From: a virus
Lineage: Duplodnaviria; Heunggongvirae; Uroviricota; Caudoviricetes
Virus record (IMG/VR): IMGVR_UViG_3300010409_000003
Length of the DNA stretch: 64,000 nucleotides
Direction: 5' to 3' (one strand)
Below the pieces are notes generated by a model that worked only from the letters and a program-made list of their open reading frames with translations, did no database searches and was not told where the DNA came from. Both the position numbers and the translations under genes were made by a program. Below are positions 16,389 through 61,738 of this stretch, one piece after another; positions within the stretch are counted from its first letter, which is position 1, and the number at the start of each line of letters is the position of its first letter.

Positions 16389-17000
16389 ATGCAAATATTA
16401 AATAGATACACAAATGAAGTTATTATAGAAAGTTTAGAAGTTAAGACTATTAAAGAATTAGTAGAATTAGCTGTTAAAGAAGACGCAAACTTAAGAGACG
16501 CAAACTTAAGAGATGCAGACTTAAGAGATGCAGACTTAAGAGGTGCAAACTTAAGAGGTGCAAACTTAGTAAGAGCAAACTTAGTAAGAGCAAACTTAGT
16601 AAGAGCAAACTTAGAAGATGCAAACTTAGTAAGAGCAAACTTAGAAGATGCAAACTTACCTAATTTTTTAATAACCCCTGAAACAGGATCTTTTCAAGCG
16701 TACAAGAAATTAAGACATAATATAATAGTTAAGATTTTAATACCAGATGATGCTAAGAGAACTAATAGCTTAATAGGTCGTAAATGTAGGACTAATGAGT
16801 TCACTATTACAGAAGTTATGCAGAACCCTGCTAACATTAGTTTCAGTGAACACAAACCTTTACAATCTACACATTATGCATCAGAAGGATACTATCTAGG
16901 GGGTACTTTCAAAGAGCCTGCGTACGATGATGATATCCGTTTAGAGTGTACTAAAGGTTTGCATTTCTTTATGACATTAAAAGAAGCCCAAGATTGGTAA
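16389..17000 (+). CDS. pentapeptide-repeat protein (N-terminal A(N/D)LR(D/G/V) repeat array, about 18 repeats, plus a C-terminal globular domain)
   Basis: Reads [58 protein letters not shown], the hallmark of the Qnr/MfpA-type right-handed quadrilateral beta-helix. Confidence 0.7.
16483..16665 (+). repeat. tandem 15-bp DNA repeats (gcaaacttaagagat-like) encoding the pentapeptide array
   Basis: About 12 head-to-tail copies with minor variation. Confidence 0.7.
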
Positions 17001-52168: not shown

Positions 52169-53275
52169 ATGGGACTACCCGTAATAATTAAAACAAACAT
52201 TACAAAGAATACGAGTTCTGTACAACGTGCAGAGTTTAATATTCCTTTGTTCTTATATGATGCAGGAGACTCTAGCGCCCCTGATGTCGATTTTGGAGGT
52301 CGTGTAAGAGTCTATTCTACTTTAGATTCAGTATTAGATGACTTCGCACTTACAGAAGCCCCTTACTTAGCAGTAGCAGCATACCTTAGTCAAAACCCTG
52401 CTGTTAGTCAAGTAATTATAGGTCAGTATTATAGTGCAGGTACACCAGATGCTTCTTATACAGCAGCAGCAGTGGCTTGTAGTTTAGAGAATGATACTTG
52501 GTATCAAATAGGTATGGAAGACCACACTGAATCCGAAGTATTAACTATGGCGGCTTACGTAGAGGCTAAACAACGTTTATTCTTTACATCAAACAATGTA
52601 GCAGCTTCGGTAGATACTACTTACAATGCAGGTGCAGCAGTAGCAGGGGATATACTAGGCCAACTAGCAGACTCTAACTACGAACGTACAGCAGTATTGT
52701 GGCACCACGAAGCAGATACAGCGTTCCCTGAATGTGCATTTGCAGGGCGTAATTTACCATTTAGAGCAGGAACAGCTAACTGGGCGCACTTAGCATTAAG
52801 TGGTGTTGGTGCTTCTCAGAACGCATTAGGTAATGTACTTAATGATACTCAGATTACAAATTTAACAGCACGTAATGGTAACTTCATTTATTCTCAGCGT
52901 GGTCAGTTCCGTACATGGCAAGGTCAAGTTGTTAATGGTGAGTGGTTAGATATTGTTCGTGGAGTTGATGGTTTACGTGAAGACATTGATGCAACCCTAT
53001 TAGAAATGTTAGATAATCAAGCAGGTAGCGGCATTAGGATGACAGATGCAGGTTTAGCTCAAATTGAGAACACTTTAGACTCTGTGTTAACACGTTGGGT
53101 AGACTACGGCTTTATTCAAGCTAACTACACAATCACAATGCCTAAAGCAATTGATATTCCTTTTGCAGACAAAGCAGCACGTATTATCCGAGATATTAAG
53201 TTTGAAGCATTCTTAGCAGGTTTTGTTAATGCAATCAATCCAATATCAGGTAATGTAACTTACGAAGTATCTTAA
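52169..53275 (+). CDS. tail sheath protein
   Basis: 368 aa. N-terminus MGLPVIIKTNI. It lies upstream of two tube-sized genes, a chaperone pair and the tape-measure gene (Mu L/M/Y-like order). Confidence 0.5.
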   Translation: MGLPVIIKTNITKNTSSVQRAEFNIPLFLYDAGDSSAPDVDFGGRVRVYSTLDSVLDDFALTEAPYLAVAAYLSQNPAVSQVIIGQYYSAGTPDASYTAAAVACSLENDTWYQIGMEDHTESEVLTMAAYVEAKQRLFFTSNNVAASVDTTYNAGAAVAGDILGQLADSNYERTAVLWHHEADTAFPECAFAGRNLPFRAGTANWAHLALSGVGASQNALGNVLNDTQITNLTARNGNFIYSQRGQFRTWQGQVVNGEWLDIVRGVDGLREDIDATLLEMLDNQAGSGIRMTDAGLAQIENTLDSVLTRWVDYGFIQANYTITMPKAIDIPFADKAARIIRDIKFEAFLAGFVNAINPISGNVTYEVS

Positions 53276-53288
53276 GGAGATATTATAA

Positions 53289-53726
53289 ATGAGTGATATG
53301 ATGAAAACGTACATGCTTGCTAATTGCCAGTTTGTATGGAATGGCATTGATATGTCAAGTGGTGTAGGTAGTGACTCAGTTCTGACAGCTACACGTACAC
53401 ATGACCTAATCACAACTAGTGGTAATGCTAGAGGTGATAATGCTAACTCTAAGAATATTAACAAGCATGCTACTATCGAGTTTACCTTGATGAAAAATAG
53501 TTCTGTTAATAAAGCCCTTATACTAGCTTATGTGGCACAAGAAAATATACAAGAAGATTACTGGAGTAATTTCACTGTAATTGACCCAAGCGACCCTATG
53601 CAAATGACAGCTATTAATTGTTGGTTTACTAAACTACCAGATATGACTAAGGCTAATGAAGCAGGTGAAGTTACATGGATGTTTGGTTGTCACCAGTTAG
53701 AGTTGATACCTACCTTAGATATCTAA
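53289..53726 (+). CDS. tail tube protein
   Basis: 145 aa, directly after the sheath gene. Confidence 0.5.
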   Translation: MSDMMKTYMLANCQFVWNGIDMSSGVGSDSVLTATRTHDLITTSGNARGDNANSKNINKHATIEFTLMKNSSVNKALILAYVAQENIQEDYWSNFTVIDPSDPMQMTAINCWFTKLPDMTKANEAGEVTWMFGCHQLELIPTLDI

Positions 53727-53742
53727 GTAGTCAGGAGTCTAT

Positions 53743-54195
53743 ATGAGCTATATAAATAATTTTCTAGAGACATATAGACCTCAAGAGGTTTCTTTTGTTT
53801 TTAACGGATTAGACCTGACAACTGGACTAGACCCAACATCTCATGTAGTGGTACGTAGGAATACTAAAAAATATTCTTATGTACCTGATATAGGTGGTGA
53901 GGGTAGAGGTGCTAGATTATTAAATTCAGATAACAGTGCAACTATTACAGTAAAACTCTTTAGTACTTCACAGGTACATAAGTTCTTATACGAATTATAT
54001 AAAGAAGATGATGGGACTAATCCTAATAGTATTAGTTCTTTTACTTTTAATGATGAACGTAATAATGGTATGGCTTATCAGAAAGCTACAAATGTATGGA
54101 TATCTGACCAACAGGAAGTTGATTATAGTGATACAGTAGGTTCTATAGCATGGGAATTTACAGCTAGTGACTTACAACCTATATTTGTAGAGTAG
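53743..54195 (+). CDS. tail tube-like / tail protein
   Basis: 150-aa ORF. Confidence 0.4.
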   Translation: MSYINNFLETYRPQEVSFVFNGLDLTTGLDPTSHVVVRRNTKKYSYVPDIGGEGRGARLLNSDNSATITVKLFSTSQVHKFLYELYKEDDGTNPNSISSFTFNDERNNGMAYQKATNVWISDQQEVDYSDTVGSIAWEFTASDLQPIFVE

Positions 54196-54254
54196 TGTAC
54201 TAGGAGTAGCTAGTTATAGTTACTCCTTTAATTTATAACAATTAAGGAGGTTCT

Positions 54255-54638
54255 ATGAGTTTTGAACATAGACAGAAAACAACAGAGATTAATGGTAAGA
54301 CTTACACATTGATTACATTTGGTGCTAAGAAGAGTTTTGGTGTAATCCCTCAGATTATAACAATGTTAGGTGAGAACTCTAGTGACTTTGGTGAAATGGC
54401 AATGTCTGTATTAGGACATAAAGATGGTTTAAAGTTGATAGAAACATTACTATCAGATATGTCTTGTGACGGCAGAGCTATTAATTCTTTTGACGACCAT
54501 TTTGCAGAATACCGAGGTGATTTACTCCCATGTGTAGCCTTTAGCTTAGCGGAGAATGTACTGCCTTTTTTAGGAAGCGATTCACTAGCGAGCATGGCAA
54601 CGATAGTGGAAACAGCAATGCAAGGCTTAACCAAGTAG
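54255..54638 (+). CDS. tail assembly chaperone (G-like product)
   Basis: 127 aa, located just upstream of the tape-measure gene. Confidence 0.6.
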   Translation: MSFEHRQKTTEINGKTYTLITFGAKKSFGVIPQIITMLGENSSDFGEMAMSVLGHKDGLKLIETLLSDMSCDGRAINSFDDHFAEYRGDLLPCVAFSLAENVLPFLGSDSLASMATIVETAMQGLTK

Positions 54639-54835
54639 TACGAAGGATTGATAAAGAATCATCATTATCTCCTTTTACTTCAATGGCAATGAGGGTAGCA
54701 ACCTCTGGTAAGTTCAATGATAGCTATTTAGATATATGCCATGTTTGGACAGCAGAGGATTTATTCCAAGCTTTAGAAATGTTAGATATTATGTCTGAGG
54801 TTGAAAGAGCTTCTATGCCAGAATCAAACAACTAG
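54255..54835 (+). CDS. tail assembly chaperone frameshift product (GT-like) via -1 slip at T_TTT_TTA (54566..54572)
   Basis: The -1 frame is open from 54545 to a TAG at 54833. The slippery heptamer U UUU UUA sits in the zero frame at 54566-54572. The extension reads RKRFTSEHGNDSGNS...SMPESNN. Confidence 0.6.
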
Positions 54836-54843
54836 GATATATA

Positions 54844-57177
54844 ATGTCAGGATTTTCAATAGCAGACTTCTTTGCTCAGTTAAGTATAAAAGCTGATACT
54901 AAAGAAGTTAAGAAAATAGAAGACTCATTGAATAAGATTAATAAATCTTTGAAGATGATAGGAGTTACTAGTGTAGCTCAAGCTAAGAAAGTAGATACTG
55001 TTTTTAAAGGGGAAGCCTTACGTAGACAACACTTACAAGTGAAAGGTCTACATGATGAACTAGAAAAAATGGGTAGCTCTTTAGTTGGCTTTAAGAACAG
55101 ACTAGTTGGTATCGATAAGCAATCTGAATTCGTTAAGATTAAGAATGACATTAAAGAAGCTAAACTAGAAGCTCAACGGTTTAAGAATGAACTTAAACTA
55201 AAGCATAACACTAATAGCATACTAGGTAAAGATAACATCTTTAAGAAGCCGGATGCTTTTAATGGTGCTAATGATAAAGGTAATAATGCTACTAGGATGT
55301 TCCAAGGAGGCGATGACTTCTGGGAAAGATCTGATAAAGGTAGACGTTTACTACATGACCTCAGTGAAGACCAAGTTGACCAATTAAGAGCATTAGCTGC
55401 CGAACAAGTTAAGATGAAGAAGTCGGTAACTGACGCTAATTTAGCTTTAAATACACAAGCTAAGAAGTTTAGGAAAATCAACGATACTATCCCTAAAGTT
55501 AATGCACAAATAACCTCATTAACTAGAGCACAGAATAGGCTAAAAGAATCAGCTAGGCAACTTGCATTATCAATGGTAGGTGCTTTCGCGGTATTCGAAG
55601 GTGTTAAGAGTATCAACAGAGTTGGTCAAGACTTTGAAGGTATGGAAGCTGCAATGTTGGCTTCTTCAGGTAGTTCTAAGTTAGCAGCTAAAGACTTAGC
55701 TTTTGTAGATGAACAAGCTGTACGATTAGGTTTAGACCTACGAGAGACCACAGATGCTTACTCTAAGTTGCAATTTGCAGCTAAAGGTAAAATGAGTAAA
55801 GGACAAACTAAAGAATTATTTACAGGTTTTAGTGAGTTTGCTACAGCCTTGAAAGTTAGTCCAGAACAACAGAAATCAGGGTTAAGAGCCTTGCAACAAA
55901 TGCTCAATAAAACTACGGTTATGAGCGAAGAATTAAAACAACAACTCGCTTAATGTTGGGCGCTTAGGGTAGGAAACTCCCTTAGAAGAATCTATTTAAT
56001 TGCTGGGACAACTTGTTAAGCTTAGTATACAATACTACATAGTGATATAGTAGCGACCTGTAAAAATTACTAGGATAGAGTTAATCAGCCTCCAATCTCC
56101 TTTAGAGGAGCAGGATCAACGACTAGAGGGCAACCTCGTACACTACAAGCTATTGGTAGTGGAAACAATAGACACCTAAACAAGTGATGTTGTAGGTGAT
56201 GATATAGTCTATTCTTACATGAGAATGTAAGCAGTTCATAAGGTTACTACCTTTGAGAACGAGTAACTTAGTAGCGTAAGTTATTGAATGCTAAGGAACA
56301 AGTACCCGGAAGTATACAAATATTCGCCAACGCTTTAAATGTTTCTGAAAAAGAATTATTTAAAATGATGGAACAAGGTACAATAGTATCCTCAGAGGTA
56401 CTACCTAAAGTAGCTAAAGAATTTGCCAAAGCCGCTAGAAGCGGTGGTGCATTAGCGGAAGCTTTGAATACAGTTAGGGTACAACAAGGTAGATTTCTAA
56501 CAGATACACAGAAAGCACAGAATACTATATTCACTAATGGTTTTGGAGAGGGGCTAGCTTCTGCTTACAAAACATTAAGTCAAGTATTGAAAGACTTAGA
56601 ACCAGTGTTGAAAGGTATAGGTCAAGGTTTTGGATTCTTATTCAGAACTTTAGCCGCAGGTATTAATATGATAACTGCACCTCTAAGATCTATAAAATTA
56701 CTTACAGACTTACTAATAGACTTAGATGAAGTGTCTAATACTTTCGCAGAGAATACCGTACCTAGAATGGTAGCCGCAGGTGCTTTATTGTTAACTGCTT
56801 GGGGGAGAGTACTAGCTAAGTTTTTAGCAGTAAAAGCAGTACTAGAGGAATTAGTAGCTCTTAGTTCTAAGAATATAGTAGGCCAAGTAGAACGTGATAT
56901 AGGAAGGGACATAGGTTTTGACTTAGGTGTAGGTGAAAGCACTAGGAGTGGTGATAACCCTTCTCTCAATAAAGAAGCCACTAGCTTTGATAATTACCTT
57001 CAATTTTATAACAGCGAAGATAGGTTTAGTGCTATGGATTGGTTAAAGGATAATGTACTAAATAGTATGGGTTCGGAGATAGTAATAAATCAACAACCTA
57101 CTATAGATGAATACGGCAGTGTCCATATTGAGAATACTGTACAACGTTCTATAGTCAATGGTCAAGCTCAGAGGTAA
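54844..57177 (+). CDS. tape measure protein, two exons (54844..55953 and about 56275..57177) separated by a putative group I intron
   Basis: Both ORFs are in the same reading frame. The first is Lys/Gln/Ala-rich helical. The second begins (L)NAKEQ...VSEKELFKMMEQGTIVSSEVLPKVAKEFAKAA, typical of a tape-measure interior. Confidence 0.6.
55954..56274 (+). ncRNA. putative ORF-less group I self-splicing intron in the tape-measure gene
   Basis: It starts UAAUGUUGGGCG immediately after an exon-terminal U (compare the T4 td intron, which starts UAAUUGAGGCC). The IGS GGCG can pair with exon CGCU. R-like UCAACGACUAGAGGG is at 56119. S-like GAUAUAGUCUAU is at 56204. It ends in G before an in-frame continuation. 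The 3' boundary is 56274 or 56280. Confidence 0.5.
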
Positions 57178-57179
57178 CA

Positions 57180-57749
57180 ATGGCAACTAAACATATATTA
57201 ACACTCGCTAATGGATTAATATTAGCTATTGATGCGACACAGGAGTTGACTGAAACTTTTAAATCCCAAGCTACAGATTTACCTACAGCTAATAGGGAAT
57301 CTGTTTCAGACCATTTTATAAAGAAAAATCCTACTTTTAACTTTTCAGGAGTTATTAGTGGTGTTTATAATCCAAGGTCTCCTAGTCTAAATACATCATC
57401 TATCCTCTCCCAGAATTTTAGAAATGTAGTACAACAAGGTAATATACTTACTTTCTATTCTGGTGACAGATCTTTTGATAATTGTCATGTAGATTCTGTA
57501 GTCCTTAAAAGAGATGTAGAAGTTGGTAAACTAGGTTGGCGTATAGCAGTAACTCTAACTCAGATTAAGATAGCTACGGGAGGTAGCGAGTCTGTAGTAG
57601 CCGTTAACTCTAATGTAACTGACCAAGCTTCTGATAAAAAGAATGTAGGCTCTAGTAGTACAAAAGATGTCAACCCTATTATAGAGTTAGAAGGTTTTGG
57701 TGTCTTTGGTGGTAAGAATGCTTACGGGTCTATTAGCGGTACAGGTTAA
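57180..57749 (+). CDS. putative tail/baseplate protein (DNA-circulation-protein position)
   Basis: 189 aa. Assignment by gene order. Confidence 0.35.
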   Translation: MATKHILTLANGLILAIDATQELTETFKSQATDLPTANRESVSDHFIKKNPTFNFSGVISGVYNPRSPSLNTSSILSQNFRNVVQQGNILTFYSGDRSFDNCHVDSVVLKRDVEVGKLGWRIAVTLTQIKIATGGSESVVAVNSNVTDQASDKKNVGSSSTKDVNPIIELEGFGVFGGKNAYGSISGTG

Positions 57750-57759
57750 GGATAATTAA

Positions 57760-58098
57760 ATGGCAATAGAAATTAGAACACCACAATCTGCTTGGACTTC
57801 TCAACAACTTACTATAGGTGGTGTAACACTTAACTTTGAGCTACGTTGGATGACTAGGGAAGAGGTTTGGGTAGCGGATATATTTGATACTAATGGTAAC
57901 TCAATACTAACAGGTATCGCCCTTACTATTAATCAATCTATAAACTTAAGTTACTATAGACCTCAATTACCAGAAGGAGACTTTTGGGTACTAAGGTTTG
58001 AAACTAAAGCTGATGATATTGATAGAGATAACTTAGGTACAGCCTTTAAGATTGTATTCCTCACAGAAGCGGAGAGTATTGATGCAGGTCTTAGGTAG
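57760..58098 (+). CDS. hypothetical tail protein
   Basis: 112-aa ORF. Confidence 0.4.
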   Translation: MAIEIRTPQSAWTSQQLTIGGVTLNFELRWMTREEVWVADIFDTNGNSILTGIALTINQSINLSYYRPQLPEGDFWVLRFETKADDIDRDNLGTAFKIVFLTEAESIDAGLR

Positions 58099-59149
58099 AA
58101 TATATGAGTTAGTTATTACTAATGCTACTAAGCAAACTGTGATTGAAGTCCCTGAGTTACTAGCACCCACTGATGACACAGAAACATTAGGTTCTTTTGG
58201 ATTATCATTACTATCTCCAACTGAGTCACAAGGTATAAGTGTTTATAGTACTTCCCCTCCTGATTCTAGAACTATACCCTTAGCAGATAAAACTAAGAGT
58301 AGAGTTTGGAATGGAGATTTAAAGTTACGAGCAACTGTAGAAAAGAATAACACTAATAGTAACACTAATAATGTGGAAATAGAATTATATAACCCGTCTA
58401 AAGAAGATTTATCTTTTGTCACAACTAAAGCTGATAAACGTTATATCTCGTTAAGAGGTGGTTATAAAACACTTAAAGATGGTGCTTTAGTTGATGAGTT
58501 TGATGCATTGCCTGAGATATTCACAGGGGATGTTATTGACATACGTAGTGAGAGACAGGGTGTTAATCTTGTTATGACTGTCGTAGCTAAAGATAGTGCA
58601 GCCTCTATACGTAAAGGTACGGTTAGTAAAAACTTCCCTAAAGGTACAGATAAGAAGACAGCTATAGAAGATATTGTAGGTTCTTGGGATGGTATTATAT
58701 TTACTAATAACTCTATTAGTCCAGAAGTAGAATTTACCTCAAGTAGTTTTACATCTTCATTTACTGCTTATGGGAACATAGGCTCTGTCTTAGATGAACT
58801 AACTAGAGATGAAGATATCGTATGGCATATAACTAACAACATATTCTACATGATAAGTAAATCAGAGCCTAAGCTAGCTAGACAGGTTACATTAAAACCT
58901 GAGAATATAATTAATGATATTAACAATATTCAACAATCTAACTTAAATGGTAAAACACCTCAAGGCTTAAAGTTTAGGACTTTCTTAGATGGCCTAATCA
59001 GTACCGACACTAAAATAGTCTTAAAAGACTTTGATACACTAGACCCCCAGAACCCCATAGATGGAGATTACAATGTTAGAACTATTAAACATGTTATGGA
59101 TACACATGGAGTTCCTTGGTATACAGAGTGTACGGTGGAGGCTAGATAA
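58082..59149 (+). CDS. putative baseplate hub / tail protein (Mu P / P2 D-like position); start trimmed to MQVLGR
   Basis: ORF track 58052..59149. Internal Met at 58082. Confidence 0.4.
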   Translation: MQVLGRIYELVITNATKQTVIEVPELLAPTDDTETLGSFGLSLLSPTESQGISVYSTSPPDSRTIPLADKTKSRVWNGDLKLRATVEKNNTNSNTNNVEIELYNPSKEDLSFVTTKADKRYISLRGGYKTLKDGALVDEFDALPEIFTGDVIDIRSERQGVNLVMTVVAKDSAASIRKGTVSKNFPKGTDKKTAIEDIVGSWDGIIFTNNSISPEVEFTSSSFTSSFTAYGNIGSVLDELTRDEDIVWHITNNIFYMISKSEPKLARQVTLKPENIINDINNIQQSNLNGKTPQGLKFRTFLDGLISTDTKIVLKDFDTLDPQNPIDGDYNVRTIKHVMDTHGVPWYTECTVEAR

Positions 59150-59802
59150 TGGCTTATGAATTTGACTTGTATGATATTACTAAGTCTCATGTGGATAAAC
59201 TAACTGACCAATTGTATACATCATTACCTGCTACTGTAACGGCATATTATGCTAAAAAACAGGCCGTAGACGTTACAATAGATATTAGGCAACCAAGTAC
59301 CTTAGATAGAGATGAAATGCCCTCTATGAGCCTTACAGAGGTTCCTGTAATCTTTCCTAGTGGGGGTAAAGGTATACTGAGCTTCCCCATCACGGCAGGA
59401 GATAAAGTGTTCTTATGCTTCTCTATGATGAGTCTTGATAAGTGGAAAGCTAATGGTGAAGGTGTATGTGGTGATAACCGTATGCACAGTAACAATGATG
59501 CGGTAGCTATAGCAGGTTTATTTAATTTAAGTAGTAACTTAGAACCTAACCCCGACGATGTAGAACTTAAGGCTTTTGGTTCAAAGGTTACATTAAAGAA
59601 ATCAGGGGATATAGAAGTAGTACCTTCAGGTAAGACAATTATAGATAGTGACGTAGAGATAACAGGTAACTTAGCCGTAGCAGGTAATACTGAATCTGAG
59701 GGTACATTAAAAGGTAATGTGGTTACTGATACTTCTACCGGTAATAAAGTAGGTACTCATGTACATCCAACTAACGGTGCTCCACCAACAGCAGGTACAT
59801 AA
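59149..59802 (+). CDS. baseplate spike protein (gpV-like)
   Basis: 217 aa located before gpW-like and gpJ-like genes. Confidence 0.45.
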   Translation: MAYEFDLYDITKSHVDKLTDQLYTSLPATVTAYYAKKQAVDVTIDIRQPSTLDRDEMPSMSLTEVPVIFPSGGKGILSFPITAGDKVFLCFSMMSLDKWKANGEGVCGDNRMHSNNDAVAIAGLFNLSSNLEPNPDDVELKAFGSKVTLKKSGDIEVVPSGKTIIDSDVEITGNLAVAGNTESEGTLKGNVVTDTSTGNKVGTHVHPTNGAPPTAGT

Positions 59803-60158
59803 TGGGCGATATATACTTAGATCCCTCAACAGGGGATATAGATTTTTCAACTAAGCAGCCAGTATTGATAACTGATAATGCAACTGCTGTTAGGCAGAGG
59901 TTACATATAAGACTAAACACTTTCCAAGGTGAGTGGTTCTATAACTCTGCTACAGGTGTTCCTTATTTCCAAGATATACTAGGTCAGCAGTTTGACCAAG
60001 ACATAATAGATAACACAATGAGGCGAACAATAATAGAAACAGAAGGTGTAGTTGAATTAACTTCCTACGAACCTTCATTCTCACGTTTAGCCAGAACTTA
60101 CAATATAACATTTACAGTAACTACCGAACAAGGTGATATTGTAACTGTAACTACTTAG
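59802..60158 (+). CDS. baseplate wedge protein (gpW / T4 gp25-like)
   Basis: 118 aa. GDIYLDPSTGDIDFS...LHIRLNTFQGEWFYNSATGVPYFQDILG matches the conserved gpW/gp25 family pattern. Confidence 0.65.
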   Translation: MGDIYLDPSTGDIDFSTKQPVLITDNATAVRQRLHIRLNTFQGEWFYNSATGVPYFQDILGQQFDQDIIDNTMRRTIIETEGVVELTSYEPSFSRLARTYNITFTVTTEQGDIVTVTT

Positions 60159-60166
60159 GATAACTA

Positions 60167-61738
60167 ATGGCAGGAGTAGACGAGAATGGCCTTACTATAA
60201 AGAGGCTTCCTGATATACTTAGTGAGTTCCAAGCAGCTATCAAAGCACAGTACGGGAATGATACTCCTGTAGATGCTAATAGTTTCTTCGGAATATTTAA
60301 TACTATTTACGGAGCTAGTGATGCTGAGGTATGGGAATTACTACAAACTTTAAACAATCAGTTTAGTCCTAACACAGCTTATGACAAGTGGTTAGACGAC
60401 ATAGCGGCTTACCTAAAAATAACAAGGTTACAACCTACAGCGAGTAAGGGTGAGTTATCTTTATTTGGCAATAGTGGTACTGTAATACCTGTTGGTACGG
60501 AATTTAGTGATTTAAATGGCGCTGTGTACCAATCAACAACAGAAGGCATCTTAGATACGGGTACTTCTAGAACGCCTATTGCTATCGGAACTACAAATGG
60601 GACAGGGATTACAGGGGAATCCTCTACCTTATATACTATCACTATCAACGGTGATACTTACAATGCCCAAACTTACTGGCCTAATGTACAATTAGAAGAT
60701 GTAGCTTTATCCTTTAAGAATTCTATAGGAGACCAACCTAATTATTATGTAGAGAGTTATACAGAACTTAATCCTGAATTTATTATAGGTGATAATCCTC
60801 CTGATGGAGGTAATAAAGGTACTATACTTAATATTATAAATAAGAATGCAGTAATCCCTATTACCATTACAACGGCAGTTACACAATCACCTATACCAGA
60901 ACATTACCAGTTTTCTATAGCATCTATACTTAAAAGTAACACTATTTCAACTTTCAGTGACTTTATAGAAGTAGAAGCAACCTTAGTAGGGTCTATAGAC
61001 ACACCTGTTAATACTCTAACTGCTATTGAAACTCCTGTAGTTGGCTTAGATTCTGTGTACAATCAAAACTCTATGGTAATAGGTCGTGACTTAGAAACAG
61101 ATGAAGAACTACGTGAAAGAATGAAGCAAGATGGGGCTATTAATAGTTACGCCACTGAACCTGCTATAAAAGCTAATCTTAGACAAGTAGAGGGCGTATC
61201 TTTTGTAGATATACAGGTTAATAAGAGTTATGTTACTGATACTGAAGGTAGACCTCCGAATAGCTATGAGTGTGTCGTTATAGGCGGTGACGAAGAAGAT
61301 ATTGCTAAGACTATATTAAATAGAGGTGCAGCAGGGATAGAGCCTCATGGTAACACCTCAGTTACTATAGATGACGATGATGGTAATCCACAAGTTATAA
61401 AGTTTTCTAGAGCAGTAGAAGAGTATATATGGTTGAAGTTGTATTACACTAAGAATACTGAGGAGGTTTTCCCTGACAATGGTACAGAACTTATGACTAC
61501 CTCAGCATTAGAATACGGAGAAGACCTCAACATAGGAGCTGATGTAATACCTAAGAGGTTCTTCGGTAGTGTTTACAGCTCTACTACAGGTATAGAAGAT
61601 CTAGTAATAAAAGTAGCTAAGTCGTCCGACCCAGTGGTAGAACCTGCTATAAGCGAATTTAGTGTAGAAAAAATAAGTATTCCTAGTGATAGTGTCTCTA
61701 GTTTTGCTGATTATAGGATAGAAGTGATAGAGGACTAA
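60167..61738 (+). CDS. baseplate protein J-like
   Basis: 523 aa, directly after the gpW-like gene. Confidence 0.5.
   Translation: MAGVDENGLTIKRLPDILSEFQAAIKAQYGNDTPVDANSFFGIFNTIYGASDAEVWELLQTLNNQFSPNTAYDKWLDDIAAYLKITRLQPTASKGELSLFGNSGTVIPVGTEFSDLNGAVYQSTTEGILDTGTSRTPIAIGTTNGTGITGESSTLYTITINGDTYNAQTYWPNVQLEDVALSFKNSIGDQPNYYVESYTELNPEFIIGDNPPDGGNKGTILNIINKNAVIPITITTAVTQSPIPEHYQFSIASILKSNTISTFSDFIEVEATLVGSIDTPVNTLTAIETPVVGLDSVYNQNSMVIGRDLETDEELRERMKQDGAINSYATEPAIKANLRQVEGVSFVDIQVNKSYVTDTEGRPPNSYECVVIGGDEEDIAKTILNRGAAGIEPHGNTSVTIDDDDGNPQVIKFSRAVEEYIWLKLYYTKNTEEVFPDNGTELMTTSALEYGEDLNIGADVIPKRFFGSVYSSTTGIEDLVIKVAKSSDPVVEPAISEFSVEKISIPSDSVSSFADYRIEVIED

Follow-up and report, generated by a model that had tools for sequence, protein, structure and literature searches.

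A group I intron without an open reading frame, predicted to self-splice, in the tape-measure gene of a Caudoviricetes phage

The tape-measure gene of a Caudoviricetes phage, carried on a stretch of 64,000 nucleotides from the IMG/VR record IMGVR_UViG_3300010409_000003 (the whole stretch is called the window here), is very probably split by an IA2-type group I intron at 55951-56295, which is 345 nt (115 codons) long, lacks an open reading frame (ORF) and is predicted to be self-splicing. A preliminary description of the window, made from its letters, had proposed a group I intron between two tape-measure ORFs, and this call is borne out by a match to the Rfam group I intron family (RF00028), by the continuous Pfam TMP_3 domain obtained on excision, by uninterrupted homologs and by covariation from helix P1 to helix P9.2. 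The RF00028 match extends over 55942-56231 with 77.7 bits (gathering threshold 50 bits) and E 5e-18, covers model positions 1-253 of 253, and is the only family above threshold in the 64-kb window. No credible further intron was found in the window by Rfam (E up to 1) or by BLAST with 12 related introns.

The two flanking ORFs, 54844-55953 (369 aa) and 56284-57177 (297 aa), both lie on the + strand in frame 1, as had been described, and turned out to be the halves of one tail tape-measure protein with a TMP_3 domain (PF20155). Exon 1 alone corresponds to TMP_3 profile positions 2-115, and the second ORF to positions 116-167, starting from its residue 5, the Glu at 56296. Joining 54844-55950 to 56296-57177 gives a product of 662 aa with one TMP_3 match (residues 256-416) that spans the junction. 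Three in-frame 3' junctions were scored on the TMP_3 profile, and an exon 2 starting at 56296 gave 77.0 bits, compared with 66.5 bits for 56281 and 64.6 bits for 56275. Excision of 55951-56295 joins GCU|GAA and yields ...EELKQQLA|EQVPGSIQIF..., which is gap-free against uninterrupted tape-measure proteins; the predicted spliced RNA reads ...CAACUCGCU|GAACAAGUACCC... at the junction, and the predicted junction peptide is ...QQLAEQVPGSIQ... (also given as QQLAEQVPGSIQIFANALNVSEK). The same motif without a gap is seen in Alteromonas phage PT11-V22, which is uninterrupted here (QLAESLPGAIQIF; EELRLQLAESLPGAIQIF), in the IMG/VR contig L125, which is uninterrupted at the site of the window intron (QLAEHLPGAIQIF; EELKSQLAEHLPGAIQIF), and in contigs L128 and L130 once the other introns that they carry are spliced out in silico (QQLAEQVPGSIQIF; EELKQQLAEQVPGSIQIF).

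With the 5' splice site after U55950, G56295 is the only G that keeps both the frame and the gap-free homolog motif QLAE(Q/S/H)(V/L)PG, and the 3' end of the second intron of contig L126 stands in the same context (...UUG|GAACAAG). The intron is therefore placed at 55951-56295, where the homolog motif is gap-free and the TMP_3 score is best. The coordinates proposed in the preliminary description, 55954-56280, are roughly those of the gap between the ORFs and need correction, as the 5' end was placed 3 nt late and the true 3' end is G56295; that the insert ends in a G was correct, but G56280 lies inside the 3' strand of P9.2 (56277-56285). The sequence features that had been listed are all present, namely the insert start UAAUGUUGGGCG (at 55951, immediately 3' of the exon-terminal U55950), the GGCG/CGCU pairing and the R-like and S-like elements. 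The ORF list contains no + strand ORF of at least 40 aa inside 55951-56295, in agreement with the earlier statement that the insert has no homing endonuclease ORF. An intein or other protein-level insertion was considered and rejected, as an in-frame UAA opens the insert and further stops follow in the host frame.

The helices were mapped by hand, and covariation in the core was evaluated in seven related introns aligned with MAFFT, P7 being treated as a pseudoknot. In the core, 79.4% of the cells are standard pairs, compared with 35-43% when the partners are slid by 1-3 columns; 58 pairs are changed on both sides (15-23 with slid partners), and none of 500 shuffles reached the observed values. 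The 3' domain, which lies beyond the Rfam match and was compared in 12 related tails, is 82.7% paired versus 34-47%, and 16 of the 20 pairs in P9, P9.1 and P9.2 are changed on both sides; P9 is 100% paired in the 12 tails (5/7 pairs changed on both sides), and in P9.2 the corresponding number is 8/9. The exon sequence CGCU (55947-55950) pairs with GGCG (55959-55962), where a wobble pair (U55950-G55959) identifies the 5' splice site, and P1 is fully paired (5/5) in 7/7 related introns, each with its own exon and with the splice-site U-G wobble invariant. P3 (UCUAUU/AAUAGA) covaries to CCUAUU/GGUAGG, CCCAUC/GGUGGG and CCUGUU/GGCAGG in relatives, P5a retains 7/7 pairs in five introns with five different sequences, and P7 (GACUA/UAGUC) covaries to GAUCA/UGAUC in Pseudoalteromonas phage PH357 and in intron B of L130. 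The R-like element UCAACGACUAGAGGG starts at 56116 and the S-like element GAUAUAGUCUAU at 56201; the pattern TCAACGACTA-N60-90-GATATAGTC has a single match in the window, and 0/100 shuffles contain it.

Between the P7 5' strand and the P3 3' strand the intron reads GAGG-GCAA-CCUC, GUA, CACUAC-...-GUAGUG, and such a P7.1-GUA-P7.2 arrangement is a criterion for subgroup IA2 (PMC3428280). In the same-site intron of L126 (intron 2), P7.1 changes from GAGG/CCUC to GAGC/GCUC and P7.2 from CACUAC/GUAGUG to CUUCAC/GUGAGG; P2 is also kept in this intron. The local hairpins of the window intron are recovered in unconstrained folds as well. The P1-P9 core that had been anticipated thus corresponds to mapped helices P1-P9.2 backed by covariation in relatives. 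The insert had also been called a minimal intron, which it is not, since its 345 nt include the full peripheral set of P2, P5a-c, P6a, P7.1, P7.2, P9.1 and P9.2. As a side observation, the P9.2 hexaloop GUAGCG is common to many family members, with a freely covarying stem (others have UAACGA or UAGCGA), and the same hexamer recurs at 56050-56055, on P5c's 3' side (UAGUAGCGACC); GUAGCG is a candidate for a tertiary-contact motif.

Table 1. Coordinates of the exons, of the intron and its structural elements in the window, and insertion sites of group I introns in related tape-measure genes (numbered on the window protein)
Feature	Position	Strand	Description	Basis
Tape-measure exon 1	54844..55950	+	369 codons, end ...EELKQQLA, last codon GCU	ORF list, translation
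Group I intron, IA2-type, ORF-less	55951..56295	+	345 nt	RF00028, homolog alignment, Pfam junction scores, covariation
UAA stop in frame with exon 1	55951..55953	+	intron nt 1-3, ends ORF 1	sequence
P1	55947..55962 (55947-51/55958-62)	+	exon CGCU + U55951 paired with internal guide sequence GGGCG 55958-55962	sequence, Rfam
P10 guide (predicted)	55954..55957	+	UGUU, complementary to exon-2 AACA 56297-56300	sequence
P2 hairpin	55963..55985	+		minimum free energy fold
P3 5' strand	55991..55996	+	UCUAUU, pairs with 56167-56172 AAUAGA	covariation
P4 and P5	within 56002..56089	+	P4 56002-06/56085-89, enclosing P5 56010-14/56078-82	mapping, covariation
P5a, P5b, P5c	56021-27/56068-74; 56028-31/56059-62; 56035-41/56046-53	+		mapping, covariation
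P6 and P6a	56091..56115	+	P6 56091-93/56113-15; P6a 56097-101/56106-110; loop region with HNH ORF in relatives
P7 5' strand	56121..56125	+	GACUA, in R-like element; pairs with 56205-56209 UAGUC; pseudoknot with P3	Rfam alignment
P7.1, GUA linker, P7.2	56126..56161	+	56126-29/56134-37; 56138-40; 56141-46/56156-61	mapping
P3 3' strand	56167..56172	+	AAUAGA	covariation
P8 hairpin	56173..56198	+		7/10 pairs changed on both sides
J8/7 and P7 3' strand	56201..56212	+	S-like element GAUAUAGUCUAU	Rfam, pattern scan
P9 hairpin	56214..56231	+	CUUACAU GAGA AUGUAAG	covariation, 12 tails
P9.1 hairpin	56234..56260	+		folds, covariation
P9.2 hairpin	56262..56285	+	conserved GUAGCG loop 56271-76	covariation, 12 tails
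Terminal (omega) G	56295	+	3' splice site	frame, homolog motif, TMP_3 score
Tape-measure exon 2	56296..57177	+	start GAA CAA GUA = EQV...; stop codon 57175-57177
Site a0	near codon 349		L125 (Rfam 87.6 bits)
Site a	AU|G of Met352		L128 intron 1, L130 intron A
Site b	after codon 360		PH357; ICP1 intron 1 nearby
Site c	CU|A of Leu364		L126 intron 1, L128 intron 2 (HNH_3 ORFs), L130 intron B (ORF-less)
Site d'	U|UA of Leu368		L165 (complete); probably L127, L131
Site d	after Ala369		window, L126 intron 2, L129, L167/L148
Site e	after Pro373		L129, L130

The splicing pathway that we propose follows the standard route of group I introns. On the late transcript of the tail operon, a ribosome translating exon 1 would stop at the UAA 55951-53 and leave the ribozyme free to fold; P1 would then form by pairing of the exon CGCU to the GGCG of the guide, the U55950-G55959 wobble defining the 5' splice site, and an exogenous guanosine held in P7 would attack after U55950. 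G56295 would subsequently take over the guanosine site while exon-2 AACA (56297-300) pairs with UGUU (55954-57) as P10, and the 3'-OH of exon 1 would attack after G56295, so that GCU|GAA is ligated (Ala369-Glu370) and one tape-measure protein of 662 residues can be made. Group I introns of phages and bacteria commonly have such an early in-frame stop, which is thought to help folding (PMC3984707).

Protein and DNA searches for related tape-measure loci from uncultured phages revealed group I introns at no fewer than seven sites within about 25 codons of the tape-measure motif, with up to three per gene (Table 1), and in-silico splicing at these sites gives one continuous, identical protein motif in every case. 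The intron of L126 at the site of the window intron is 78.7% identical to it and scores 88 bits in Rfam. At the same site, the intron of L167 is 1003 nt long and has the same GGCG guide, a 227-aa ORF in P6 (HNH_3, 36.9 bits) and a core that, without the ORF, is 72.7% identical to the window intron. An HNH_3 ORF in P6 is also found in intron 1 of L126, 16 nt upstream of the window's site (27.9 bits), and the HNH_3 ORF of L128 intron 2 scores 26.2 bits. At site d the intron-bearing alleles read CTC GCT and the intron-less ones CTT GCA (target sequence ...CAACAACTTGCAGAACAAGTTCC...), so that the GCT supplies the U for the U-G wobble. We also observed that several relatives carry two or three introns each (L126 2550-4003, L129 1-448, L130 1-1014 and L128 728-2151), with predicted internal exons of 12 nt (L129), 16 nt (L126), 28 nt (L130) and 33 nt (L128). 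In such micro-exons, nearly the same nucleotides have to serve both P1 of the downstream intron and P10 of the upstream one.

Unannotated introns were noticed in two isolates. Phage PH357 (KX822733.1, locus L002) has a group I intron of about 342 nt at 3229-3570 (...KGKIMA|EELKNQL...), at a site that differs from that of the window; its P3-P8 pair and its P7 covaries (GAUCA/UGAUC), Rfam gave no match to the insert at E up to 0.01, and the deposited annotation has a 'putative tail tape measure protein' and a 'hypothetical protein' on either side of it. Pseudoalteromonas phage H101 (KR534323.1, locus L001) has one at 2948-3246 (Rfam 77.1 bits) between two 'hypothetical protein' coding sequences just downstream of the large terminase, where the host is probably the portal gene; no frame-consistent pair of splice sites was found for this intron.

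The window intron is a mosaic, as its positions 31-139 (the P3-P5 region) are 86.5% identical to the intron of the H101 portal-like gene, and its positions 167-292 match, with 86.7% identity, an intron that contig L151 carries in an unrelated gene. That locus (Ga0075464_10215730, 230-1035) represents the same intron lineage with a different intron ORF (...YESLYVLPSTNTMKA | WGDFAQFFKELMQQK...). We further observed that the 27-mer TACACTACAAGCTATTGGTAGTGGAAA (window 56138-56164), which runs from the last two bases of the GUA linker through P7.2 to the GAAA after it, occurs exactly in 28 metagenome and 6 IMG/VR contigs (loci L134-L167) of diverse environmental origin, a human gut assembly among them; the introns that share it have different host genes and divergent flanking intron sequence. 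The R...S core pattern is present in more than 119 IMG/VR contigs, and a scan of IMG/VR for the P5c motif of the window type matched H101 and one contig only. No record covering at least 80% of the window intron was found by BLAST, and no match to the exon-intron junction GCTTAATGTTNGGCGCTTA turned up in the metagenome collection. By megablast of 24 kb of the window versus 50,697 phage records, no isolate genome close to the window was found, the sole match being an intron segment of 96 nt in H101.

The preliminary description considered a tape-measure gene an unusual host, which does not agree with the literature, since tape-measure introns have been published for Vibrio phage ICP1 (PMC10448857) and for prophages of the Bacillus cereus group (PMC2504315). 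The tape-measure gene has been called a 'frequently interrupted gene' (Barth, Dunham & Seed 2023, PMC10448857), as part of the wider theme that homing endonucleases and introns concentrate in essential late genes (Barth 2023, PMC10448857), and introns in other phage structural genes are documented as well (PMC3706429; PMC4124061). In ICP1 the tape-measure transcript has four exons and three introns, determined by RNA-seq and reverse transcription PCR, with an HNH-3 gene usually in the middle intron (PMC10448857). ICP1 resembles the window in host gene and Pfam domain and in being a marine gammaproteobacterial myophage, and it resembles the window family in having introns clustered in the same short conserved stretch inside the TMP_3 motif, with ORF-less introns beside an HNH-3-bearing one and very short internal exons between them. 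Its intron 1 is 76% identical to the window intron over 80 nt; Rfam gives 77.9 bits for this intron and, further on in the locus, 38.9 and 28.9 bits, which are below threshold. ICP1 differs in having three introns where the window has one and in exon proteins that are merely about 32-38% identical, and its introns 1 and 2 lie after ...QVMA (near site b) and after GAACU|A (site c), whereas the window intron is at site d; the junctions of the third ICP1 intron were not derivable from sequence alone.

The prophages of the B. cereus group likewise have group I introns at three alternative positions (IVS1-3) in the tape-measure gene (Tourasse & Kolsto 2008, PMC2504315), but these are siphovirus prophages of Gram-positive hosts with tape-measure proteins of more than 1200 aa, and the comparison here is one of intron class and host gene. 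An intron that interrupts the lysin gene in Streptococcus thermophilus phages, as summarised in PMC8541194 from Foley et al. 2000, has ORF-less deletion derivatives and, as far as that summary goes, resembles the window intron in having endonuclease-bearing and ORF-less versions at one site in a phage late gene; it would differ in gene and phage lineage, and the ORF was deleted there, while in the case of the window either loss or gain could apply. With the IA2 introns of phages T4 (td, nrdB, nrdD), SPO1 (DNA polymerase) and Staphylococcus phage Twort (orf142, nrdE) the window intron shares the R/S core (UCAACGACUA ... GAUAUAGUCU), P7.1-GUA-P7.2, an in-frame stop near the 5' splice site and the P1 U-G wobble, and it differs from them in its host gene, its elaborate P5a-c and its P9.1/P9.2 tail with the conserved GUAGCG loop. 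Segments of the window intron match 116 Staphylococcus phage records by BLAST. Landthaler and Shub are said to have described, in 1999, three closely spaced introns in Twort orf142, a precedent for the clustering. Overall, the window intron is a new sequence in an already documented host gene and no new kind of element; the multi-site hot spot with micro-exons in the relatives is the more interesting by-product.

The identity, boundaries, fold and family context of the window intron are established by our data, and several points nevertheless weigh against its reading as a self-splicing IA2 intron. Splicing of the window intron, including the guanosine-dependent chemistry, is predicted from sequence. 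The z-score of the minimum free energy is -1.35, and 8 of 100 shuffles fold equally well, which is not significant; a weak score is expected for a pseudoknotted ribozyme, and thermodynamics gives no independent support. The putative P10 has only 4 bp with a G-G mismatch at position 1, and its covariation is uninformative because the exon is identical in same-site relatives, while P2 is not conserved and is poorly aligned in more distant relatives. The IA2 type would follow from the P7.1/P7.2 architecture and not from a curated subgroup model. In the 64-kb window, tblastn found no homologs of the three intron ORFs of the relatives (best E 2.2), and given that no related endonuclease gene was found in these 64 kb, out of a contig of about 91 kb, the history of mobility is something that we infer.

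That splicing is predicted from sequence, together with the non-significant z-score and the fact that gene callers annotate two ORFs both in the window and in relatives, would also suit a decayed, non-splicing relic or a plain gene split, in which two polypeptides (from ORF 54844-55953 and ORF 56284-57177) assemble non-covalently. This is very improbable, since the catalytic core fits the Rfam consensus across the full model, every helix keeps its pairing through compensatory changes in relatives, and the guide sequence of each intron fits its own exon; the compensatory pairing and the guide-exon match imply ongoing selection for splicing. In addition, the break falls midway through one Pfam domain, the homologous ICP1 locus is spliced in vivo, and the second ORF would need a TTG start inside P9.2 without a ribosome-binding site. 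As this TTG has no Shine-Dalgarno-like sequence upstream, independent translation of exon 2 is unlikely. A group I intron ending at G56280 or at G56274, which would lengthen the protein by 5-7 residues (LLNAK or RKLLNAK), is slightly more improbable still. Both positions are a G and in frame with the 5' splice site after U55950, but the TMP_3 score drops by 10.5 and 12.4 bits, respectively, at these junctions, and no homolog has an insertion there. Moreover, G56280 lies in the P9.2 3' strand and G56274 in the conserved GUAGCG loop of a helix backed by covariation, the same-site intron of L126 ends at a position equivalent to G56295 (...UUG|GAACAAG), and the complementarity AACA/UGUU for P10 is found only with an exon start at 56296.

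A further alternative concerns mobility only and is compatible with the identity and splicing of the element as a group I intron. Lacking a homing endonuclease ORF of its own, the window intron cannot move unaided, and the copy in the window is most likely an ORF-less derivative or a hitch-hiker, judged by comparison with its relatives. Its inheritance would be vertical, or it would be co-converted by means of a nuclease from a related co-infecting phage, and if it is mobile at all it presumably depends on nucleases supplied in trans. That the intron is still mobile, in the sense that an endonuclease from elsewhere cuts intron-less alleles at or near the site and the ORF-less intron is copied during repair, is rather unlikely in our opinion. 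The nuclease would have to come from a free-standing gene outside the 64-kb window (collaborative homing) or from a neighbouring intron of a co-infecting relative. Such mobility would fit the HNH_3 ORFs in introns at the same site (L167) and 16 nt upstream (L126 intron 1), the patchy distribution of the intron among close relatives and its mosaic modules (the 5' part 86% identical to the H101 portal intron, the 3' part 87% to L151), and collaborative homing is documented in other phages (PMC3984707; PMC10448857). Against it stand the tblastn result for the relatives' ORFs and the Pfam scans, in which no free-standing homing endonuclease domain was found among about 30 predicted window proteins and no nuclease domain in the nine neighbour proteins of the tape measure. 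The only nuclease-type match among the roughly 30 proteins is the LAGLIDADG domain of a probable intein in the large terminase subunit (TerL).

The nine neighbours of the tape-measure gene (52169-61738) are tail and baseplate proteins by Pfam, one being without a match, and form a myovirus tail module with a sheath-like DUF3383 protein, two tube proteins, a tail assembly chaperone, a Dit-like protein, a Pam3 gp18-like plug and baseplate J. The TerL gene (42557-45088, + strand) carries the probable intein of 329 aa at about 42677-43663 in the Walker A motif (junctions GGAAGSGK|ALKHGMPVLT...FIVTHN|SHLML; LAGLIDADG_3, 41.8 bits), with an N-terminal Ala and not Cys or Ser; once this insert is taken out, the extein gives a continuous alignment to hundreds of phage terminases. 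The intein is a probable second selfish element in the late region of the intron. An in-frame TGA (42587-42589) stands ten codons after the TTG start of the terminase (42557), which is preceded by a strong TAAGGAGGTG ribosome-binding site; no alternative start codon was found from this TGA up to the Walker A motif, and its position falls in a 2-residue gap of the homologs. The TGA may reflect an error in the assembly, a nonsense variant of natural origin or stop-codon readthrough. A near-consensus sigma-70-like promoter (TTGACA-N17-TATACT, 41853-41881) lies in a non-coding gap of 285 nt upstream of ORF 42131-42517 and the terminase gene. Elsewhere in the window, ORF 16389-17000 (+ strand) has pentapeptide repeats (65.5 bits) and a DUF5758 match (69.2 bits). 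Pentapeptide-repeat proteins are often DNA mimics, and this one may be a putative anti-host factor.

For annotation, the finding means that two 'hypothetical' or half tape-measure ORFs should become one protein of 662 residues, join(54844..55950,56296..57177), and that the same correction is due in the deposited genomes of the Pseudoalteromonas phages PH357 (tape measure) and H101 (portal-like gene). As the length of the tape measure sets the length of the tail, a wrong tape-measure annotation misleads structural predictions.

The relatives extend the three-intron locus of ICP1 to at least seven sites, with micro-exons, in uncultured marine phages, which makes it a convenient natural system in which to study the site-hopping of introns, splicing across exons of 12-16 nt, and competition between endonucleases and introns. 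It is tempting, if tentative and a little short of an even chance, to regard the stretch of about 75 nt that codes for ALQQMLNKTTVMSEELKQQLAEQVPGS as a multi-site landing pad for one recombining IA2 intron lineage. Some of the sites a0, a, b, c, d', d and e are merely 5 nt apart, and introns at different sites have near-identical modules (the P7.2 27-mer, the P9.2 GUAGCG loop) with guides retuned to their own exon. If this is true, introns would hop from site to site by guide change and reverse splicing, or would exchange modules during endonuclease-driven repair, and ORF-less copies like that of the window would persist by destroying the target sites of the nuclease.

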